Source: Chlamydiales bacterium
GTDB lineage: Bacteria > Chlamydiota > Chlamydiia > Chlamydiales > SM23-39
DNA: 32,000 nucleotides
Assembly (NCBI GenBank): GCA_965261025.1
Contig: OZ253438.1
Span: forward strand, 930,001-962,000
Direction of reading: 5' to 3'
Shown here: positions 3,680 through 12,971 of the stretch, one piece after another
Layout: each line of letters begins with the position of its first letter
Position numbering within the stretch: the stretch's first letter is position 1
Made by a program: the position numbers and the translations under genes
Notes under the pieces: model-generated
Databases searched by the model: none
Told to the model about the DNA's origin: nothing
The model's input: the letters and a program-made list of their open reading frames with translations, nothing else

Positions 3680-5134
3680 TTACCTAGGAGAAAAAGGTCT
3701 TTTCTTTAGAAAAAAACTAAGAAAAAAACCTAAAAAGGCTAAAAGAAAAAAGCCCCAAGCGTTATAGCGAATCGCCTGAATAAAGGTTTGCACTACTTCT
3801 TGCCAAGTTTGCCAAGAAAACGACTCCCTTATTACAGAAAAAGGTAACAGCCCTTTTGCTGCACGAGAAAGTAGCGGGGTTTGTGAAAAAGGGGAACGGG
3901 TTGCTACAAAATCTATGATAGCAGTAGTAATAGAGACTCCTAAAGAACAGGCTAGCCAGGCAATAGTAAAAAAAATTCCCGAAGCCCGCCCTAATTTCTC
4001 AAAAGTAACGGAATGTAGAGCCCCTGCAATAGTTGCTACAAAAGAGATAGCAATAGATGCTCCGAAAAATACAAAAGAGATACACAACCATAGCAAAAAC
4101 CAAGAGAAAGGAGCCACAATGAGACAAACAGAGGCTATCATAAAAAAGACCATAGATAGTTGGTTGGGAAATTTATCCCCTGATCGATCAATCCACTTTC
4201 CTGCAAAAGGAGAAATGAGCGTAATGACTAGCATTAAAAAAAGCAAAAAAAGTCCTGTATGCAAAGGGCTAATTCCTAAGATATTTTGTAAAAGCAGAGG
4301 AGCAAAAAAAAGAGTCCCTAAAAAAATAATCTGAGTAACTACTCTTAAAAAATTATTAATAGAAAAATTTCTTTCTAAGAATAGGGTAAAATCAAACGTT
4401 TTTAAAAGAGATTTCTTCTCTCTTCTGTATAAAAGAAAAAAAAGAGCTATACTGACTACCATACCTAATAAAAACTTTCCCGAGAAAGCGCCCCATATAG
4501 AAAGCTGATTTAAAGAAAACGCTAAAATAAATAAGGCAAACATTAAAAAAGCCATTCCTATTTTATCGAACTTTTTATTCCCACTAGGAACAGATTTGCA
4601 AGCAATACAAGCTACCAAAAAACAGAAGACCCCTATGGGAATGTTGATATAAAAAATCCATCTCCATCCTAGAGTATGTAAAAAAAATCCTCCCAAAGGA
4701 GCCCCTATAGCCAAAGCAATACCCATTGACGCTACCGTAAAACTCCTTGCATAGGATTGCTCTTCCTTAGGAAAAGCTTCCGCTAATAAAGTAATAGTCA
4801 AAGGACTAGCTATCCCTATCGATACTCCTTGTAAAGCTCGAAACAAAATCAGCATATTTTCACTAAAAGAGATACCTGCCCCTAAAGAACTTAAGACAAA
4901 TAAAAATAGAGCATATAAGAAGGTCTTTTTATGTCCAAAGGAATCCCCTAAGTGTCCCCCCAAGACTTGTACCATAGAAGCAAAGATGAAAAAGGCATTA
5001 ACCACCCACTGAACACTTACCAGTTTTGCATAAAACTCTTGAGCAATAGCAGGAACTACCATATTTACCACCGTAGCATCGACACCGAGCATTACGGTTA
5101 CAAGACACATACAAACAAGGACCCACCACTTCAT
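3680..5134 (-). CDS. MFS transporter (14-TMS, DHA2 / EmrB-QacA-like)
   Basis: The N-terminus ...LVTVMLGVDATVVNMVVPAIAQEF and GHLGDSFGHKKTF are typical of the DHA2 family. 484 aa with many TM segments. Confidence 0.75.
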   Translation of the reverse strand: MKWWVLVCMCLVTVMLGVDATVVNMVVPAIAQEFYAKLVSVQWVVNAFFIFASMVQVLGGHLGDSFGHKKTFLYALFLFVLSSLGAGISFSENMLILFRALQGVSIGIASPLTITLLAEAFPKEEQSYARSFTVASMGIALAIGAPLGGFFLHTLGWRWIFYINIPIGVFCFLVACIACKSVPSGNKKFDKIGMAFLMFALFILAFSLNQLSIWGAFSGKFLLGMVVSIALFFLLYRREKKSLLKTFDFTLFLERNFSINNFLRVVTQIIFLGTLFFAPLLLQNILGISPLHTGLFLLFLMLVITLISPFAGKWIDRSGDKFPNQLSMVFFMIASVCLIVAPFSWFLLWLCISFVFFGASIAISFVATIAGALHSVTFEKLGRASGIFFTIAWLACSLGVSITTAIIDFVATRSPFSQTPLLSRAAKGLLPFSVIRESFSWQTWQEVVQTFIQAIRYNAWGFFLLAFLGFFLSFFLKKRPFSPR

Positions 5135-6844: not shown

Positions 6845-7303
6845 ATGAGTACAACAAAATTTGCTCTTTCTGAAAAACAACGTTTTAAGATGAAAATGGG
6901 AGTTTTTCTAGTTCTATTCAGCGAGGAAAAGGTTCTTCTGATTAGAACCGGCATTGCTGATGGACGCCATGTTTTCCCGATGGGAGCAGTTAGTTAAAAT
7001 GAGACTGCTATTGAAGCTTTGGTTCGTGAAGCTAAAGAAGAGGTAAATATTACACTGCGCTCACATGCAATTGATTTAGTCCATACGATGCACCGTATGC
7101 ATCACATGCCTGATGGAAGCTCCTTTAAACAAGTTGACCTATTTTTCCAGCCAAATTATTTCTCAGGAGAAATAAAAAATAGGGAGCCACACAAATATGA
7201 TGAAGTAGCATTCTATGCGCTGAATGCTTTGCCTGAGACTACTGAATCATTCATTTGTCAAGCTCTTAGCAACATCACTCAAAATATACCCTACTCTGAG
7301 TAG
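6845..7303 (+). pseudogene. Nudix hydrolase interrupted by one in-frame TAA (6995..6997) inside the Nudix box
   Basis: ATG 6845 and track ORF 7019..7303 are in the same frame. The joined translation reads ...GRHVFPMGAVS*NETAIEALVREAKEEVNI, which fits GX5EX7REUXEEXGU (G-AVS*N-E-TAIEALV-RE-A-K-EE-V-N-I) with the stop at a variable position. Confidence 0.75.
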
Positions 7304-7319
7304 GCTTAGGAGAGATATC

Positions 7320-8123
7320 GTGACTAAAGAGCTGTCTTCAAAAATTTATGAAACTACAGCTAAAAACTATAATATAGGACGCAAAGCGGATCCATTCATA
7401 GTGGAAAGAATAGGAGAAAACCTTCTACAAGATCTAAATGGGGTATATTTAGATGTTGGATGTGGTACTGGGAATTATACAAGTGCTCTAGCTCAACTAG
7501 GTTTTACTATTCAGGGCTTAGATCTATCACCTTCAATGCTTGCAGAAGCAAAAAAATCATTTCCCGAATTGATATGGCATGAGTCAGATATGAGAAATCT
7601 ACCGTTTCCTTCTCAGTCTTTCAATGGAGTTGTTTCAATTAACACTTTGCATTATGTGCGTTATACAATAAATGAAGTGTTTCATGAGATAAAACGAATA
7701 TTAAAACAGCGTGGAAAATTTGTGTTATTTCTAGTGACTTTAGAGCAATCTCTTCAATTTTGGGTAGGTCGCTATTTCCCCTTTTTCTGGGAGCTTGGAA
7801 AGCAAATTCTCATGTCAAGGCAAACAATTCTTGATTCCTTGGATCAAGTGGGATTTAAAAAACTGAAGGTCATTCCTTACTATATAACAGAAACTTCAGA
7901 AGACCTTTACATATATGCTTGTAAATACCGCCCTTATCTACTTCTAGATCCTACAATCCGAGAAGGCATGACCCCTCTACAAAGACCAGAATATCAAGCA
8001 TTAGTATCAGCTGGATGTAGCTTGCTAGCAAAAGACATCAAAACAGGAAAAATTAATGATGTTATCAATGAACATGAATCCGATCTAGGTGAAGGCTTGT
8101 TTATTAGTGCATCTTTAGAATAA
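7320..8123 (+). CDS. Class I SAM-dependent methyltransferase
   Basis: Motif I YLDVGCGTGNYT, then a post-I acidic residue (QGLDLS) and a motif II-like region FNGVVSINTLHYV. GTG 7320 is preceded by AGGAGAG (7308..7314). The alternative start ATG 7224 would overlap the Nudix gene by 80 nt. Confidence 0.8.
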   Translation: MTKELSSKIYETTAKNYNIGRKADPFIVERIGENLLQDLNGVYLDVGCGTGNYTSALAQLGFTIQGLDLSPSMLAEAKKSFPELIWHESDMRNLPFPSQSFNGVVSINTLHYVRYTINEVFHEIKRILKQRGKFVLFLVTLEQSLQFWVGRYFPFFWELGKQILMSRQTILDSLDQVGFKKLKVIPYYITETSEDLYIYACKYRPYLLLDPTIREGMTPLQRPEYQALVSAGCSLLAKDIKTGKINDVINEHESDLGEGLFISASLE

Positions 8124-8396
8124 AGGCACTGTCAGGTCTTTTTAGGAAGACATTTAGCCATTTCTTCGGCAATTCGCTGTCATTTCAATTTGATCTATCT
8201 CTAATCCTCATCCATAGCCCCCGCATGAAGAATCTCAATAAAGATCAATCATAAATGTTATGTCCCCAAGGAATTTGGGCAACAGCTGTTGCCCAATTTT
8301 CGTCAGGGTAACTGTCAGCAAATTGCCTCATAATATTAGACTTCTTTCGAAACTAAAATTTTGATGCGTCAGTTCTGTAAAATTTCTTCTTTTACC
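8124..8396 (-). pseudogene. Remnant of a DUF1016/YhcG-like (PDDEXK nuclease family) gene, multiply frameshifted
   Basis: Minus-strand fragments in different frames: ..ELTHQNFSFERSLIL*, MRQFADSYPDENWATAVAQIPWGHNIYD*, and ..GLEIDQIEMTANCRRNG*. They resemble, from memory, the conserved GFSxRNLxYMRQFxxxYPD...QIPWGHN...GWSRxxLxxQIE..R motifs of DUF1016 proteins. Confidence 0.4.
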
Positions 8397-8449
8397 TTTT
8401 AAAAAAATCTTAACACTTCTACGATCACCCCTCACTTTTTGAGGTTTTT

Positions 8450-8954
8450 ATGAAATGGCTTTTTACTTTGCTCGCAATGTGCACTCAATTATCAGCAGGG
8501 ACATTCGATGAAGTTGCACCTTCCACTCCTGAAGAAATCGCTACATTTGGCGGCTATACATTTGCCTTAGGATTTCATGAAGCTGCTGGCATGAGTTTAA
8601 TAGCCTCAGGCTGTGCTACAGCGATGTACCATGCACAAGATATGAAAGCCCCCGATATAGCTTGGAAGAATACGAACCCTTGATGGACCTGTTGATGGAG
8701 GAGTTATAGTAGTTGATCCACAAGGAAATGCAATTCCAGTACCTGAGAATAATTGGATAACTGGTTCAAAAGATGGGAAGTGGTTACAAGTCCGCGAACC
8801 CTCTGAGAACCCAAGAGGTAAACAAACCGGAGTACGAAAAGATGATAAACATCCGAAAGGGCCAAAACATTCGGATCCAAGATCTTTACAGCCGCATGGA
8901 CACCGCGCTGGTATAACAAACCCTAACGGAACGCCTTGGCTCCCAATACACTAA
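8450..8954 (+). pseudogene. Frameshifted gene: signal peptide + Gly/Ala-rich hydrophobic segment (8450..8683), then a His-rich toxin-like C-terminal domain in the +1 frame (8661..8954)
   Basis: ORF1 is MKWLFTLLAMCTQLSAG... (signal-peptide-like) and ends at TGA 8681..8683. A second frame is open from 8661 with no start codon. It reads LGRIRTLDGPVDGGVIVVDPQGNAIPVPENNWITGSKDGKWLQVREPSENPRGKQTGVRKDDKHPKGPKHSDPRSLQPHGHRAGITNPNGTPWLPIH* (stop 8952..8954). Confidence 0.6.
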
Positions 8955-8969
8955 CTTATTTAACAAACT

Positions 8970-9218
8970 ATGCCTAAACAAGAAAATAAATTTACATGGG
9001 GAGAGCCTGTTTATGTAAAACGAAATGCCCCCTTGGTTTTTCATCCAGGAGAATTCGCTTCAATATGCGGAATTGATAAAATCTTATCTCAAAAAGAAGC
9101 AGATGAACTTTCTTGTAAAAATCAAGAATGGATTTATCTTGTGGAATTTGAAGATGGAAGTTCCATGGAAATTCCTGAATGTTACTTAGAAAAAGACCTA
9201 GGTAATTTTAAGGCCTAA
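8970..9218 (+). CDS. Small SH3/Tudor-like protein (82 aa), candidate immunity/antitoxin-type protein
   Basis: Starts 16 nt after the toxin-like domain. The pattern FTWGEPVYV..NAP..FHPGEFASICG....WIYLVEFEDGSSMEIPECYLE is typical of small beta-barrel domains. It is a paralog of the N-terminus of 9547..10176. Confidence 0.7.
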   Translation: MPKQENKFTWGEPVYVKRNAPLVFHPGEFASICGIDKILSQKEADELSCKNQEWIYLVEFEDGSSMEIPECYLEKDLGNFKA

Positions 9219-9295
9219 CAATAACTGTCCTGGCTAAAACTTCACTTGACAAACACTACTTATTTTACCGTGTCCAATTCACACTTGACTTTCCC

Positions 9296-9539
9296 CAAAA
9301 AATGGACAAAAATTTATTAGCCTCTAAAACTAAAAACCCATTTTTGGAGGATAAAAAATGCAAAAAAAGTTTGATCAAGAATTTCGAGAACAAGCAGTTA
9401 AGCTTGCTTTAGAAAAGAAAATTTCTCAGAAAGAATTAGCAAAGGATTTAGGAATAGCAAGATCCACTTTAGTAGGGTAGATACAGGCTTATAAGAAAGG
9501 CAATCCTATTGTTACAGGAGAAACTCCTGAGCAAAAAGA
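9296..9539 (+). mobile_element. IS3-family left-end/orfA remnant, copy 1 (truncated, nonsense-inactivated)
   Basis: ATG 9358 gives MQKKFDQEFREQAVKLALEKKISQKELAKDLGIARSTLVG*IQAYKKGNPIVTGETPEQKE. This is the HTH transposase OrfA pattern of IS3-family elements, with TAG 9478..9480 where Trp is expected (..STLxxW..). Near-identical to 10191..10435. Confidence 0.75.
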
Positions 9540-9546
9540 GCACCGT

Positions 9547-10176
9547 GTGAACATGAATATAAAAGCTGATGATAGTAAATTTACTTGGGGCGATTCTGTT
9601 ATTATTCGAAAAAATTCACCTACAAAATTTCATCCAGGCGAATTTGCTTCTGTTTGTGGATTTTATAAGGTCCAATCCAAAGAAACAGCAACAGAGCTCG
9701 CGTGTAAGATTGGAGACTGGGTTTATACAGTCGAATTTGGGGATGGTTCTGATGTTGAAGTTCCAGAATGTTATCTCGACAAGGATTTTTCGGTTATTCG
9801 TGGAGAAGAATTATCTAAATATGCCTCTTATTTTGTTAATGGGGCTGTTTTAGAAATTGTTTTAAATATGGATGTAATAAAGATAAAACTAAAAAGTTCT
9901 TTTGTTCATCAGCAAATTTCTAAAGACCCACTCTTCTTGAAAGATGGTTATTTTACTGGAACCTTGATCGCGACACGAATTATTAAATTTGTTATGGAAA
10001 ATAGTAATTATCCAACCAAGCGACAGCAGATTGGAAATATTTTATCTTTTGAAATATCTGATCAGACTCTTAAATTACATATAGAGTGGGAGCAATGTAA
10101 AACAACATCCTTAGAAATCCAAGCAATTCAATTTTGGTGGGAACAAGAACTTACTCATAAACAAGACAGCTTTTAA
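9547..10176 (+). CDS. Two-domain protein: N-terminal SH3-like domain paralogous to 8970..9218, plus a ~125-aa C-terminal domain of unknown function
   Basis: About 59% identity by eye over ~70 aa with the 82-aa protein (KFTWGDSVIIRKNSPTKFHPGEFASVCG...WVYTVEFGDGSDVEVPECYLDKD). The start is GTG 9547 or ATG 9553. The frame is continuous with the truncated IS orfA upstream. Confidence 0.7.
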   Translation: MNMNIKADDSKFTWGDSVIIRKNSPTKFHPGEFASVCGFYKVQSKETATELACKIGDWVYTVEFGDGSDVEVPECYLDKDFSVIRGEELSKYASYFVNGAVLEIVLNMDVIKIKLKSSFVHQQISKDPLFLKDGYFTGTLIATRIIKFVMENSNYPTKRQQIGNILSFEISDQTLKLHIEWEQCKTTSLEIQAIQFWWEQELTHKQDSF

Positions 10177-10190
10177 AGGGTGGCCTTCCT

Positions 10191-10523
10191 CAAAAAAATG
10201 GACTAAAATTTATTAGCCTCTAAAACTAAAAACCCGTTTTTGGAGGATAAAAAATGCAAAAAAAGTTTGATCAAGAATTTCGAGAACAAGCAGTTAAGCT
10301 TGCTTTAGAAAAGAAAATTTCTCAGAAAGAATTAGCAAAGGATTTAGGAATAGCAAGATCCACTTTAGTAGGGTAGATACAGGCTTATAAGAAAGGCAAT
10401 CCTATTGTTACAGGAGAAATTCCTGAGCAAAAAGAAATCCGTAAGCTAAAAAGAGAGAATGATTTATTACGAGAGGAGAGAGATATCTTAAAAAAAATTC
10501 TAAGAAATATTAGCTTGGATTAA
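10191..10523 (+). mobile_element. IS3-family left-end/orfA remnant, copy 2 (longer, same nonsense codon, no orfB)
   Basis: ATG 10254; identical TAG at 10374..10376. It continues ..PEQKEIRKLKRENDLLREERDILKKILRNISLD* (stop 10521..10523), which is the leucine-zipper-like end of IS3 OrfA. An A8 run at 10490..10497 sits where IS3 elements carry their -1 frameshift site. No transposase orfB follows. Confidence 0.75.
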
Positions 10524-10560
10524 AAACATAAAGATACGCTTTTGATACTAGCATGAGACC

Positions 10561-11460
10561 TCATACACTGGAAAATACCTTACATAGCACTTGTAATATT
10601 GTATCAAACCGAGCTTGAAGCTGACCACCAGAGCTTCTATAAATAGATAAAATACGGTAGGGAGAGGGAGCTGGTTGCCACAAAACTGGATGAAGCTTAA
10701 ATTTTTGAGCTAGAAAGTCTGGAAGAAAACCCACCTCATCAGTAGCTTCACAAATTTGTCCAATAAGGGACCAGCTGGGTATTCTAGATTTAATCGGCAG
10801 AGAATATCCATGTACCTGAAGCCAGGTTTGCTGCAGAAAAAGAACCTCCATTTGATCTTCAGGCAATAGTACAGGTTTGGCAGGGGTATCTTTGTTACGA
10901 GAATAGAGTTGAAAATACCCCTTTCCTACTTCCGCTGCAACAACCCCCTTCCAGGGGGAGTTATCCAATACCAGGGCCATATCTGCATCGTGCTGTAAGA
11001 TAGCGGCATAAGCTTGATCAGGTCTCATGTGTTTAAAGTCAATATTACTTAGAGATAAAAGAGAAGGTACAGCTACTCCCGCGATAGCATGCGTTGTTAC
11101 TAGACGAATAGCAGGCTCATCCCTTGAAATAATTAAGTTTCGTATTTCCTTAACTATCCCTTCAATTTTGGGAAGCAAAACCTGACCTTCCCTTGTTAAG
11201 CTAAACTGGCGTCTTTCATGAGTGCAAAGATCCAACCGAAAAGCTGTCTCAACCCTCTGAATAGCAGTGCTTGCAGCACTCTGGCTTAATCGATGTACTA
11301 AAGCCGCTTTTCCTAAATTTTTCAAACGAGCTGCTGATATAAAAATTTCTAAATCAACAATACGTAAATTTTTAAGAGAATTTTCAATCTTTTGCAGCGT
11401 CTTTTCCTCAAATAATTGTATTTCAGTAGAAATATCACCCAAGCTTTGCATAATAAACAC
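10561..11460 (-). CDS. LysR-family transcriptional regulator
   Basis: HTH region LEIFISAARLKNLGKAALVHRLSQSAASTAIQRVETAFRLDLCTHERRQFSLTREGQVL plus a C-terminal substrate-binding-like domain. About 30 aa of unusual N-terminal extension, so the start is uncertain. Confidence 0.8.
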   Translation of the reverse strand: MFIMQSLGDISTEIQLFEEKTLQKIENSLKNLRIVDLEIFISAARLKNLGKAALVHRLSQSAASTAIQRVETAFRLDLCTHERRQFSLTREGQVLLPKIEGIVKEIRNLIISRDEPAIRLVTTHAIAGVAVPSLLSLSNIDFKHMRPDQAYAAILQHDADMALVLDNSPWKGVVAAEVGKGYFQLYSRNKDTPAKPVLLPEDQMEVLFLQQTWLQVHGYSLPIKSRIPSWSLIGQICEATDEVGFLPDFLAQKFKLHPVLWQPAPSPYRILSIYRSSGGQLQARFDTILQVLCKVFSSV

Positions 11461-11564: not shown

Positions 11565-12971
11565 ATGAATAAAAAATCAGGTATATTACAGTTTTTTCAA
11601 TGGCTATGTCGATTCAACTTTGGCACATTCGAAAAAGAAGAGTTTAAAAAATTTTTACGTATGGGGTTGATTTTTGCCCTCATTATTGGGGTTTATTGGA
11701 CACTGCGGCCATTGAAAGACTCTATTTTCATTCAACTCGTTGGAAAGTTTCAGCTCCCGTTTGCAAAAACCATTTCCGTTCTAGCCCTGCTACCCCTTGT
11801 GATGTTCTATACAAGACTTTTAGAAAAGACCTCTCGCGAAAAAATGCTGATTATTCTCCCTGCTTTTTACGGAATGGGAATTCTCTGTTTTAGCCTGATA
11901 ATGAATCTCGTACAAAGCTCTTTGGAAGAACTATCCAATATTTCCCTTTTTTATTCAGCTAGCCTCAAATCATTAGGATATTTCTGGTACTTATTTGTTG
12001 AAAGCTTCGGTTCTTTAGTAATAGCCCTATTTTGGGCATTTGCTGCTGATACAACAAACCCTATTCACGCAAAAAGAGGATTTCCTCTAGTTGTTGCAAT
12101 TGGACAGATTGGAGGAATCATTTTTCCTTATAATATAGGAGGATTACCTCATAGGCTCCACTGCTCAACAGACTCACTTTCTATGCTATGCTTAGGTCTA
12201 CTTACTCTCTTAATTATTCCACTAGTTCGTTATTTCTTAAAAACAACCCCAAAAGAATTACTCACGTCTTTTCACGAAAAAAAGGAAAAGCAAGAGAAAT
12301 CAAAACAAGAACCGGGATTTTTAGAAGGACTAAAGCTTCTCCTAAAGAACCGCTATTTACTCTGCATTTTTGGCGCAAATTTTATCTATGAGGTAGTAGT
12401 CACAATTTTTGATTTTAACTTCAAAATTACTGCAGGCTCTATTTACTCTGGAGTAGCTTTAAGTAATTACCTAAGCATTTATGGATCTAGTGTAAACATG
12501 GTATCCTTGCTTTGCCTAATTCTGGGAATTAGCAATATAACCCGTTTTTTGGGAGTTGGAATTGCTCTTGCAGCAATGCCCCTCATTGTAGGTTTTGCTT
12601 TATTTGGTTTTATGAGCCTAAATACACTCCCCTTTTTATTTGCTTTAATGGTTGGTTCCAAAGCTATTAACTACGCTTTAAATGGCCCGGCTTTAAAACA
12701 GCTATATATTCCAACAACCCCTGATGTGAAATTTAAATCTCAGGCTTGGATTGAAACATTTGGCTCCCGCTCTTCTAAACAAGCAGGATCTGTATTCAAT
12801 ATGTCTTTAGAGCCAATACAAGAAGCATTTGGAGCTACACTAGGCAGAACTTACTACTTAGCTCTCAGCGGAGTACTATGTTTCCCCCTACTTGCCCTAT
12901 GGCTAATTATTGCTATTTTCCTGGGAAATTCCTTCAAAAAGGCTATTGCTTCCAATGAAACTGTTTGTTAG
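11565..12971 (+). CDS. Nucleotide transporter-like protein (TLC / ATP:ADP antiporter NTT family), divergent
   Basis: The N-terminal region EEFKKFLRMGLIFALIIGVYWTLRPLKDSIFIQLVG...LPFAKTISVLALLPLVMFYTRL parallels the NTT signature (ELKKFLPM...FNYTILRDTKDTLVV...IPFLK.W.VLP). Polytopic, 468 aa. Confidence 0.65.
   Translation: MNKKSGILQFFQWLCRFNFGTFEKEEFKKFLRMGLIFALIIGVYWTLRPLKDSIFIQLVGKFQLPFAKTISVLALLPLVMFYTRLLEKTSREKMLIILPAFYGMGILCFSLIMNLVQSSLEELSNISLFYSASLKSLGYFWYLFVESFGSLVIALFWAFAADTTNPIHAKRGFPLVVAIGQIGGIIFPYNIGGLPHRLHCSTDSLSMLCLGLLTLLIIPLVRYFLKTTPKELLTSFHEKKEKQEKSKQEPGFLEGLKLLLKNRYLLCIFGANFIYEVVVTIFDFNFKITAGSIYSGVALSNYLSIYGSSVNMVSLLCLILGISNITRFLGVGIALAAMPLIVGFALFGFMSLNTLPFLFALMVGSKAINYALNGPALKQLYIPTTPDVKFKSQAWIETFGSRSSKQAGSVFNMSLEPIQEAFGATLGRTYYLALSGVLCFPLLALWLIIAIFLGNSFKKAIASNETVC

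Follow-up and report, generated by a model that had tools for sequence, protein, structure and literature searches.

We analysed a 32,000-nucleotide (nt) stretch of the genome of a Chlamydiales bacterium (GenBank assembly GCA_965261025.1, contig OZ253438.1, positions 930,001 to 962,000; hereafter the window), in which positions 8450-10523 hold five elements, all on the plus strand: a short gene with an N-terminal signal peptide and an out-of-frame C-terminal domain, a gene for an 82-amino-acid (aa) SH3-like protein (imm82), a remnant of an IS3-family insertion sequence (IS), a gene for a 209-aa relative of the SH3-like protein (imm209), and a second IS3 remnant. An earlier reading of this DNA, made from its sequence alone (the original prediction), had described this order and proposed a decayed toxin-immunity cassette; checks of the open reading frames (ORFs) and the sequence found every element in its predicted place, and the C-terminal peptide it quoted matches the frame +1 translation exactly. 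The spacer between the toxin and the 82-aa gene, given there as 16 nt, is a gap of 15 nt after the toxin stop. We conclude that this is very probably a polymorphic toxin and immunity locus of the Rhs type that has decayed in a chlamydia-like chromosome. Its features, read with hidden Markov models (HMMs) and against related loci (L numbers; L089 and L090 are short metagenomic relatives), are as follows.

8381..8449, plus strand: remnant of the rhs promoter and 5' untranslated region (5'UTR), from the alignment of window 8381-8541 with L089 295-452 (76% identity).

8450..8541, plus strand: 5' end of the rhs gene, with signal peptide and '...FDEVAPSTPEEIA' (31 codons), recognised from the N-termini of chlamydial Rhs proteins.

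8534..8541, plus strand: putative deletion junction at the GAAATCGC microhomology ('EIA'), with the YD shell gone; homology to L089 ends at 8541 and homology to L090 begins at 8534.

8534..8678, plus strand: pre-toxin linker EIATFGGYTFALGFHEAAG...WKNTNP, with ~96% nt identity to L090.

8680..8681, plus strand: site of a 2-nt (TT) deletion, from the relatives' sequences; the frame is shifted and a TGA is created at 8681-8683.

8682..8954, plus strand: toxin tip domain of ~90 aa, frame +1, stop codon included (HMM E 3e-37).

8970..9218, plus strand: imm82, a single-domain SH3-like protein (HMM E 3e-39; position as in 71 of 84 loci).

9289..9533, plus strand: IS3-family remnant 1, a left end and truncated orfA with TAG at codon 41 (HTH_Tnp_1 and IS3 models).

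9533..10180, plus strand: L090-homologous segment with imm209 (93.7% nt identity to L090 1018-1665).

9553-10176, plus strand: imm209 gene (alternative GTG start at 9547; 207 or 209 aa; HMM E 3e-49).

10185..~10523, plus strand: IS3-family remnant 2, a left end and orfA with the same TAG and no orfB (HTH_Tnp_1 and IS3 models).

Given the E-values of the three HMM matches, that of the toxin domain and those of the two small proteins, these are not chance matches.

The C-terminal domain of the first gene belongs to a large family. A profile built from the first 13 homologs and searched against 1.84 billion representative proteins found 344 protein clusters (clustered at 50% identity), spread over Chlamydiota, Proteobacteria, Myxococcota, Verrucomicrobiota, Acidobacteriota and Patescibacteria. 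The proteins that bear the domain span 81 to 2,315 aa, and in 133 of 161 it is the extreme C-terminus; the long carriers are RHS-repeat/YD-shell proteins, SpvB+TcdB+RHS fusions, a MafB protein and PT-HINT proteins, and a homolog from N. meningitidis bears the annotation 'polymorphic toxin MafB class 3'. Polymorphic toxins are defined by just this pattern of a single domain carried by many delivery scaffolds (PMC3482391), and its terminal position on several scaffolds marks the domain as a polymorphic toxin tip. The predicted toxin-immunity reading is thereby supported, both by these scaffolds and by the SH3-like partner found downstream in 71 of 84 cases (below). The likeness to the tails of Rhs/LXG-type toxins that the prediction drew is borne out for Rhs carriers, with no LXG protein among the 75 longer proteins scanned. 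We found no Pfam or NCBIfam match for the window domain, no toxin family among matches of the 122 family members scanned, no PDB sequence match, and no PDB or BFVD fold match. The domain thus falls into no named effector family, yet it is the terminal module of RHS, SpvB/TcdB-RHS, MafB and PT-HINT proteins. The toxin and its immunity partner, for which neither Pfam nor NCBIfam models exist, form an uncurated family newly described here.

An AlphaFold2 (AF2) model of the tip (predicted local distance difference test, pLDDT, 95.4) is of very high confidence and mostly beta, with one short helix. Conserved polar residues are D13, D32, R53, D55, H58, H64, D66, R68, H73, H75, N81 and D83, and the His, Asp and Arg among them (D55, H58, H64, D66, R68, H73, H75) suggest an enzyme; that it would be a nuclease or RNase is a guess that we regard as doubtful. 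By the description in PMC3482391 alone, Ntox12 (all-beta; D, D, H; chlamydiae) could be the family. Another likeness is to Ntox24 (PF15529; the all-beta 'Y, H, H' toxin of PMC3482391), which shares the size (~90 aa), the all-beta fold and a '...D..H..P..H...PH.H...NP.GGTP' pattern, and in L005 an Ntox24-like tip follows the WKNTN junction of the same chlamydial Rhs scaffold; orphan fragments also lie beside imm209-type genes. The window domain does not match Ntox24 at E<=1, none of the 122 family members does at E<=0.1, and hhalign of our tip against the Ntox24-like one gave P 0.036 and a probability of 1.4% (from a shallow 3-sequence alignment), which is not significant; any relationship is unproven. 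The orphan Ntox24-like fragments (PF15529, E 0.0015, below the cut-off; L090 1840-2028, L025 2941-3087 and L077 5632-5730) lie just 3' of a two-domain immunity gene in three unrelated loci, which hints at a conserved cassette order. Hits to Tox-WTIP were set aside; they come from a distinct hydrophobic tail found after the domain in a handful of proteins and unrelated to the domain itself. This tail, of ~50 aa and ending in WTIP (P0101 283-317, P0163 265-298 and the C-terminus of P0166), matches only the C-terminal half of Pfam Tox-WTIP.

We ran an HMM of the N-terminal domain shared by the 82-aa and 209-aa proteins on six-frame translations of all fetched loci, among them 80 genome loci from many phyla, gathered with a scan pattern that required NxDG where the window reads NPNG. 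Among the 84 toxin domains with enough sequence beyond their end, 71 have an SH3-like homolog that starts within 150 nt on the same strand, across many phyla and with a median gap of 20 nt; the prediction that homologs are followed by such a partner thus holds for most of these loci. Pairwise distances among toxins and among their neighbours correlate (Mantel r 0.48, reached by 0 of 2000 permutations), and the neighbours diverge faster than the toxins (mean distance 0.64 vs 0.44). The two loci with toxins nearest that of the window (L008 and L009) have neighbours nearest imm82. A tandem pair of SH3-like copies occurs in L001 and a two-domain fusion in L007. The small proteins match no Pfam or NCBIfam family and occur in these loci only, which speaks against the housekeeping role that the prediction had named as its own possible undoing. 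They have short hydrophilic N-termini and no signal peptide; by the usual reasoning, partners without a signal peptide place the toxin target in the cytoplasm. From its position and its relatives, we infer that imm82 is probably the cognate immunity protein of the adjacent toxin.

Could the small SH3-like proteins instead be chaperones, adaptors or regulators of the toxin? Their best folds are generic binding modules. A Pfam Tudor_2 match (E 0.03) is below its cut-off, and for the AF2 model of imm209 (pLDDT 83.7) the best Foldseek match is KOW6-KOW7 (E 0.019, probability 0.99, template modelling score 0.43 by target), followed by the Tudor domains of UHRF1 and SETDB1, with none at E<=0.001; the predicted 'SH3-like' label is accordingly borne out loosely, in that the top folds are KOW and Tudor barrels, all of them below significance. 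The immunity role of the SH3-like proteins is itself putative, and Neisseria and Stenotrophomonas have other neighbours beside the toxin. Against this stand the placement of the gene immediately 3' of the toxin, often overlapping its stop, its diversification along with the toxin and faster than it, and the persistence of tandem and orphan copies after toxin loss, traits given as hallmarks of Rhs and contact-dependent inhibition (CDI) immunity genes (PMC3150448). We therefore judge a chaperone, adaptor or regulator role improbable.

A system aimed at a eukaryotic host (amoeba) instead of competing bacteria would suit a bacterium that appears intracellular and carries a TLC-family ATP/ADP transporter, and toxin-like effectors directed at the host are described in amoeba symbionts (PMC3482391). 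The same source sets such effectors apart by their lack of immunity genes, whereas the toxin here is almost always accompanied by an immunity-type gene, and its family is widespread in free-living phyla; a host target is in our estimation quite unlikely. Conflict between bacteria inside amoebae, as the prediction had it, is speculation.

The first gene reads in frame 0 (window 8450-8683) as 77 aa, MKWLF...WKNTNP*, and continues in frame +1 as LDGPVDGG...NPNGTPWLPIH to a stop at 8952-8954. Two homologies divide it. Window 8381-8541, with the 5'UTR, start codon, signal peptide and '...STPEEIA', aligns at 76% identity with the beginning of the L089 rhs gene (295-452), and the first 31 residues are like those with which full-length chlamydial Rhs proteins begin (P0034 and the L007 Rhs; also L089, VRWLFLLIG..FDEIAPSSSDEIAS). 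From 8534 the counterpart of the window is the 3' end of the rhs gene in L090, with ~96% nt identity over the first 210 nt, and the 5' and 3' homologies overlap in the GAAATCGC repeat. The linker that follows (residues 29-77 of the window protein) is the same as that of the L007 Rhs. The RHS/YD-repeat shell is absent: a tblastn search of the window with a 1,705-aa chlamydial Rhs matched the 40-aa linker only, and the core-end motif DPxG...NLYxYxxNNP, which lies directly 5' of the linker in L090, L007, L002 and L005, is absent from the window. The simplest reading of these alignments is that the first gene is an rhs gene from which the entire YD shell has been deleted, a remnant and not a working member, and that the loss was probably an in-frame deletion of ~1,500 codons (measured against the L007 Rhs) at the 'EIA' microhomology. 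The L089 and L090 homologies thus correct the predicted 'signal-peptide gene' to a shell-less rhs gene, while its toxin tail stands; this shell-less state is newly described here. The closest relative of the window toxin (82% aa identity) lies likewise within what looks like a collapsed rhs gene (L089 361-1283), where a stretch of ~230 N-terminal codons plus a single YD repeat leads, out of frame, into '...SWKNTNPFD...'; its junction is not the one seen in the window, which suggests that rhs decay happened more than once.

At the frame break the window reads CCTTGAT, where L090, L007, L025 and L008 read CCTTTTGAT or CCTTTTAAT, encoding NTNPF; the L090 version is CCTTTTGAT (NPF-D), with flanks otherwise identical to those of the window. 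Because the gap is of 2 nt, we take the break for a true mutation and not a homopolymer miscall. The +1 toxin frame has no start codon of its own, and the window toxin departs from residues conserved in at least 90% of the family at P77 (A) and D83 (N). With the shell deletion, the 2-nt frameshift and the two near-invariant residues changed, the window toxin is, to judge by its sequence, dead. A programmed +1 frameshift at CCU-UGA was considered and rejected, on the 2-nt gap relative to L090 and the missing conserved Phe codon. More broadly, if the break were a sequencing error or a programmed shift, a signal peptide-linker-toxin protein might be made and be functional, and it is true that the shell deletion is in frame and that the break falls in a T-run beside a UGA codon. 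The difference from L090 is nonetheless of 2 nt and not 1, the Phe codon is gone, two highly conserved residues are mutated, the toxin frame cannot start by itself, and there is no known delivery route for a shell-less toxin, so that this explanation is very unlikely.

Intact relatives of the shell-less gene show the usual arrangement. In L007 (Candidatus Neptunochlamydia, 1.83 Mb) a 1,705-aa Rhs with a different tip comes first, then a cassette of 168 aa that opens with 47 residues identical to the linker of the main Rhs and continues with the toxin tip domain of the window type, and next a double SH3-like protein; the linker is repeated three times in this locus, and its sharing between main Rhs and cassette makes this a classic orphan-cassette layout. 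Genes for PDDEXK_2, a MobA/MobL relaxase and TraD lie 1-6 kb after this rhs array (L007 9624-15084), suggesting a mobile-element neighbourhood. Across chlamydial Rhs proteins, 'WKNTN(P)' marks the boundary between constant linker and variable tip (L005 ~3790-4121, L090 730-750, L013, L027, L025, L034 and L008), and it precedes both the toxin type of the window and the Ntox24-like tip. That the first gene is itself no more than an orphan toxin-tip cassette of the usual sort, with a 'signal peptide' that arose by fortuitous extension of the ORF upstream, has a very slim chance: such cassettes are common in the family and start inside the linker (MASGVAIEIATFGGY...), but the homology of window 8381-8541 to the L089 rhs start takes in the 5'UTR at 76% identity, the first 31 residues match full-length chlamydial Rhs N-termini, and such an N-terminus is missing from all 13 short homologs inspected.

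The shell-less rhs gene also belongs to a kind of system that is already known, and such loci are common in environmental Chlamydiota. Chlamydiae are among the known carriers of RHS proteins and polymorphic toxins (PMC2811131, PMC3482391), and Chlamydiota supply at least 16 of our 80 genome loci, so the claim that such a locus would be unusual in an obligate intracellular-type genome does not hold.

Downstream of imm82, the IS remnants and imm209 record a second loss. Window 9533-10180 is 93.7% identical in nt to L090 1018-1665, where a 205-aa imm209 homolog directly follows an intact Rhs C-end with a variant of the same toxin domain. This homology starts exactly at the break of IS remnant 1, in A-rich microhomology (GCAAAAAGA in the IS vs TAAAAAAAAAGTA after the L090 toxin stop), and ends at 10180, 4 nt past the imm209 stop; since it starts at the IS break, a deletion from inside the IS would have removed the cognate toxin of imm209. 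The gene itself is intact, with an SH3-like N-domain (9553-9822) and a beta-rich C-domain, nineteen full-length homologs, and a ratio of nonsynonymous to synonymous substitution rates (dN/dS) of 0.30 relative to its closest homolog (L090), in keeping with constraint on the gene; in L025 and L077 the two-domain form is again found, immediately 3' of the toxin. As far as these comparisons can be read, imm209 is an orphan immunity gene whose own toxin was lost by a deletion starting inside IS3 remnant 1. Over 251 nt the two IS remnants agree at 97.6% of positions, and both carry the in-frame TAG at codon 41. Their orfA matches HTH_Tnp_1 (E 1.9e-10) and an IS3 transposase model (E 3e-11), as in IS3-family elements, from which the window copies differ in lacking orfB, in sharing a nonsense codon and, in one copy, in being cut at 245 nt. 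No orfB (DDE transposase) is present, and each copy stops inside orfA or a short way past it; inverted repeats were not reported, and there is no third IS3 copy in the window. Both IS3 copies are dead remnants.

Several points weigh against a decayed toxin and immunity locus with this history. The order and mechanism of the deletions are drawn from two short metagenomic relatives, L089 and L090, and a synteny test with the upstream methyltransferase in a metagenome collection found no syntenic intact relative. The label 'toxin' comes from architecture and context only, because family, PDB sequence and fold matches are all missing. The Mantel correlation is partly shared ancestry. The SH3-like neighbour is missing in 13 of the 84 loci, 7 of them Stenotrophomonas and 6 others, and the Neisseria cassette (L088 445-828, MafB class 3), examined separately from these, is followed by an unrelated 127-aa ORF.

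Among known systems, the nearest are the Rhs/YD-repeat systems with orphan cassettes (Enterobacteria; PMC3150448, PMC3967940, PMC3482391), with which relatives of the window gene share the shell, the core-end DPxG...NNP, a variable tip and a downstream immunity gene; another common trait is the stretch of homology by which cassettes farther downstream resemble the main gene, as in L007. The window copy differs in being shell-less and frameshifted, and the carriers here in having Sec signal peptides with no PAAR/VgrG context seen, in the junction motif 'WKNTNP', and in toxin and immunity families that are unnamed. The C-terminal domain is also found in N. meningitidis proteins of MafB class 3 (PMC4287609), a likeness by annotation, where it stands in partial cassettes after a WDWVKN motif; a 597-aa protein carries it after a MafB (PF06255) N-domain. 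There the carrier is MafB/DUF1020 and not Rhs and the gene downstream in L088 is the unrelated ORF just mentioned; Pfam finds no MafB/DUF1020 N-terminal domain (PF06255) in the window protein, and only the C-terminal tip is common. Orphan immunity genes described for Serratia Rhs (PMC10539506) are likewise intact without an adjoining cognate toxin, as imm209 is at dN/dS 0.30; the host here differs in being intracellular, and a protective role of imm209 is putative.

The chromosomal neighbours of the locus (a methyltransferase, a LysR regulator, a TLC ATP/ADP transporter, a Tsp protease and EF-G) fit a chlamydia-like intracellular bacterium. The TLC-family ATP/ADP transporter gene, of a type typical of obligate intracellular bacteria, is at window 11565-12971. 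At 7019-7303 a 94-aa ORF runs into the 5' end of the methyltransferase ORF (7224-8123); Pfam gives it no match at E<=1e-5, and it could be a fragment of a gene. A promoter and terminator scan of 8100-10700 gave no site count above that of shuffled sequence. A hairpin (CCTCA-N5-TGAGG) with a T-run lies at 8430-8444, directly 5' of the ATG at 8450, and the 5'UTR of the L089 rhs gene has a different hairpin (CCCCT-N10-AGGGG) in the same place, a comparison of two sequences only.

We propose the following course of events, in which the steps for intact relatives are drawn from established Rhs knowledge and are extended to this toxin tip family by inference. In intact relatives, a ~1,700-aa Rhs protein with a signal peptide would be exported, its YD-repeat shell enclosing the C-terminal toxin, which would follow the core-end motif (...DPxG...NLYQYVFNNP...), a hydrophobic glycine-rich linker and the 'WKNTNP' junction. 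Once delivered, the toxin would act in the cytoplasm of the target cell, as the partners without signal peptide suggest, and the producer would be protected by the small SH3-like protein encoded directly 3', which most likely binds and blocks the toxin. Downstream cassettes of toxin tip and immunity gene, carrying the same linker, could recombine into the main gene. Decay in the window would then have begun with the in-frame deletion between two 'EIA' microhomologies, leaving signal peptide, linker and toxin; a 2-nt deletion would have broken the frame, with the change of two near-invariant toxin residues; a deletion from inside an IS3 copy to the A-tract just 5' of imm209 would have removed the toxin of imm209; and a second copy of the same defective IS now sits after imm209. 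The intact imm82 and imm209 may still protect against toxins of related bacteria.

For annotation, a 77-aa 'signal peptide protein' and two 'hypothetical' small proteins together make up one rhs remnant, in which imm82 is probably the cognate immunity gene and imm209 the orphan one. The family offers experimenters a clean toxin and immunity pair, found on Rhs, Tc-like and MafB scaffolds and in organisms that include Neisseria meningitidis and Stenotrophomonas. The locus would also indicate an order of decay in a symbiont-type genome, in which the delivery shell and toxin are lost first and the immunity genes survive. Taken together, a tentative possibility, to which we give rather less than even odds, is that a widespread uncurated toxin family of at least 344 clusters, its fold unlike any solved one, is neutralised by a Tudor/KOW-like barrel, and that rhs genes of intracellular chlamydiae that have lost their shell but kept intact immunity genes are a mark of selection to retain protection against co-infecting relatives. 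If this is true, characterising the toxin tip family could reveal a new toxic activity.

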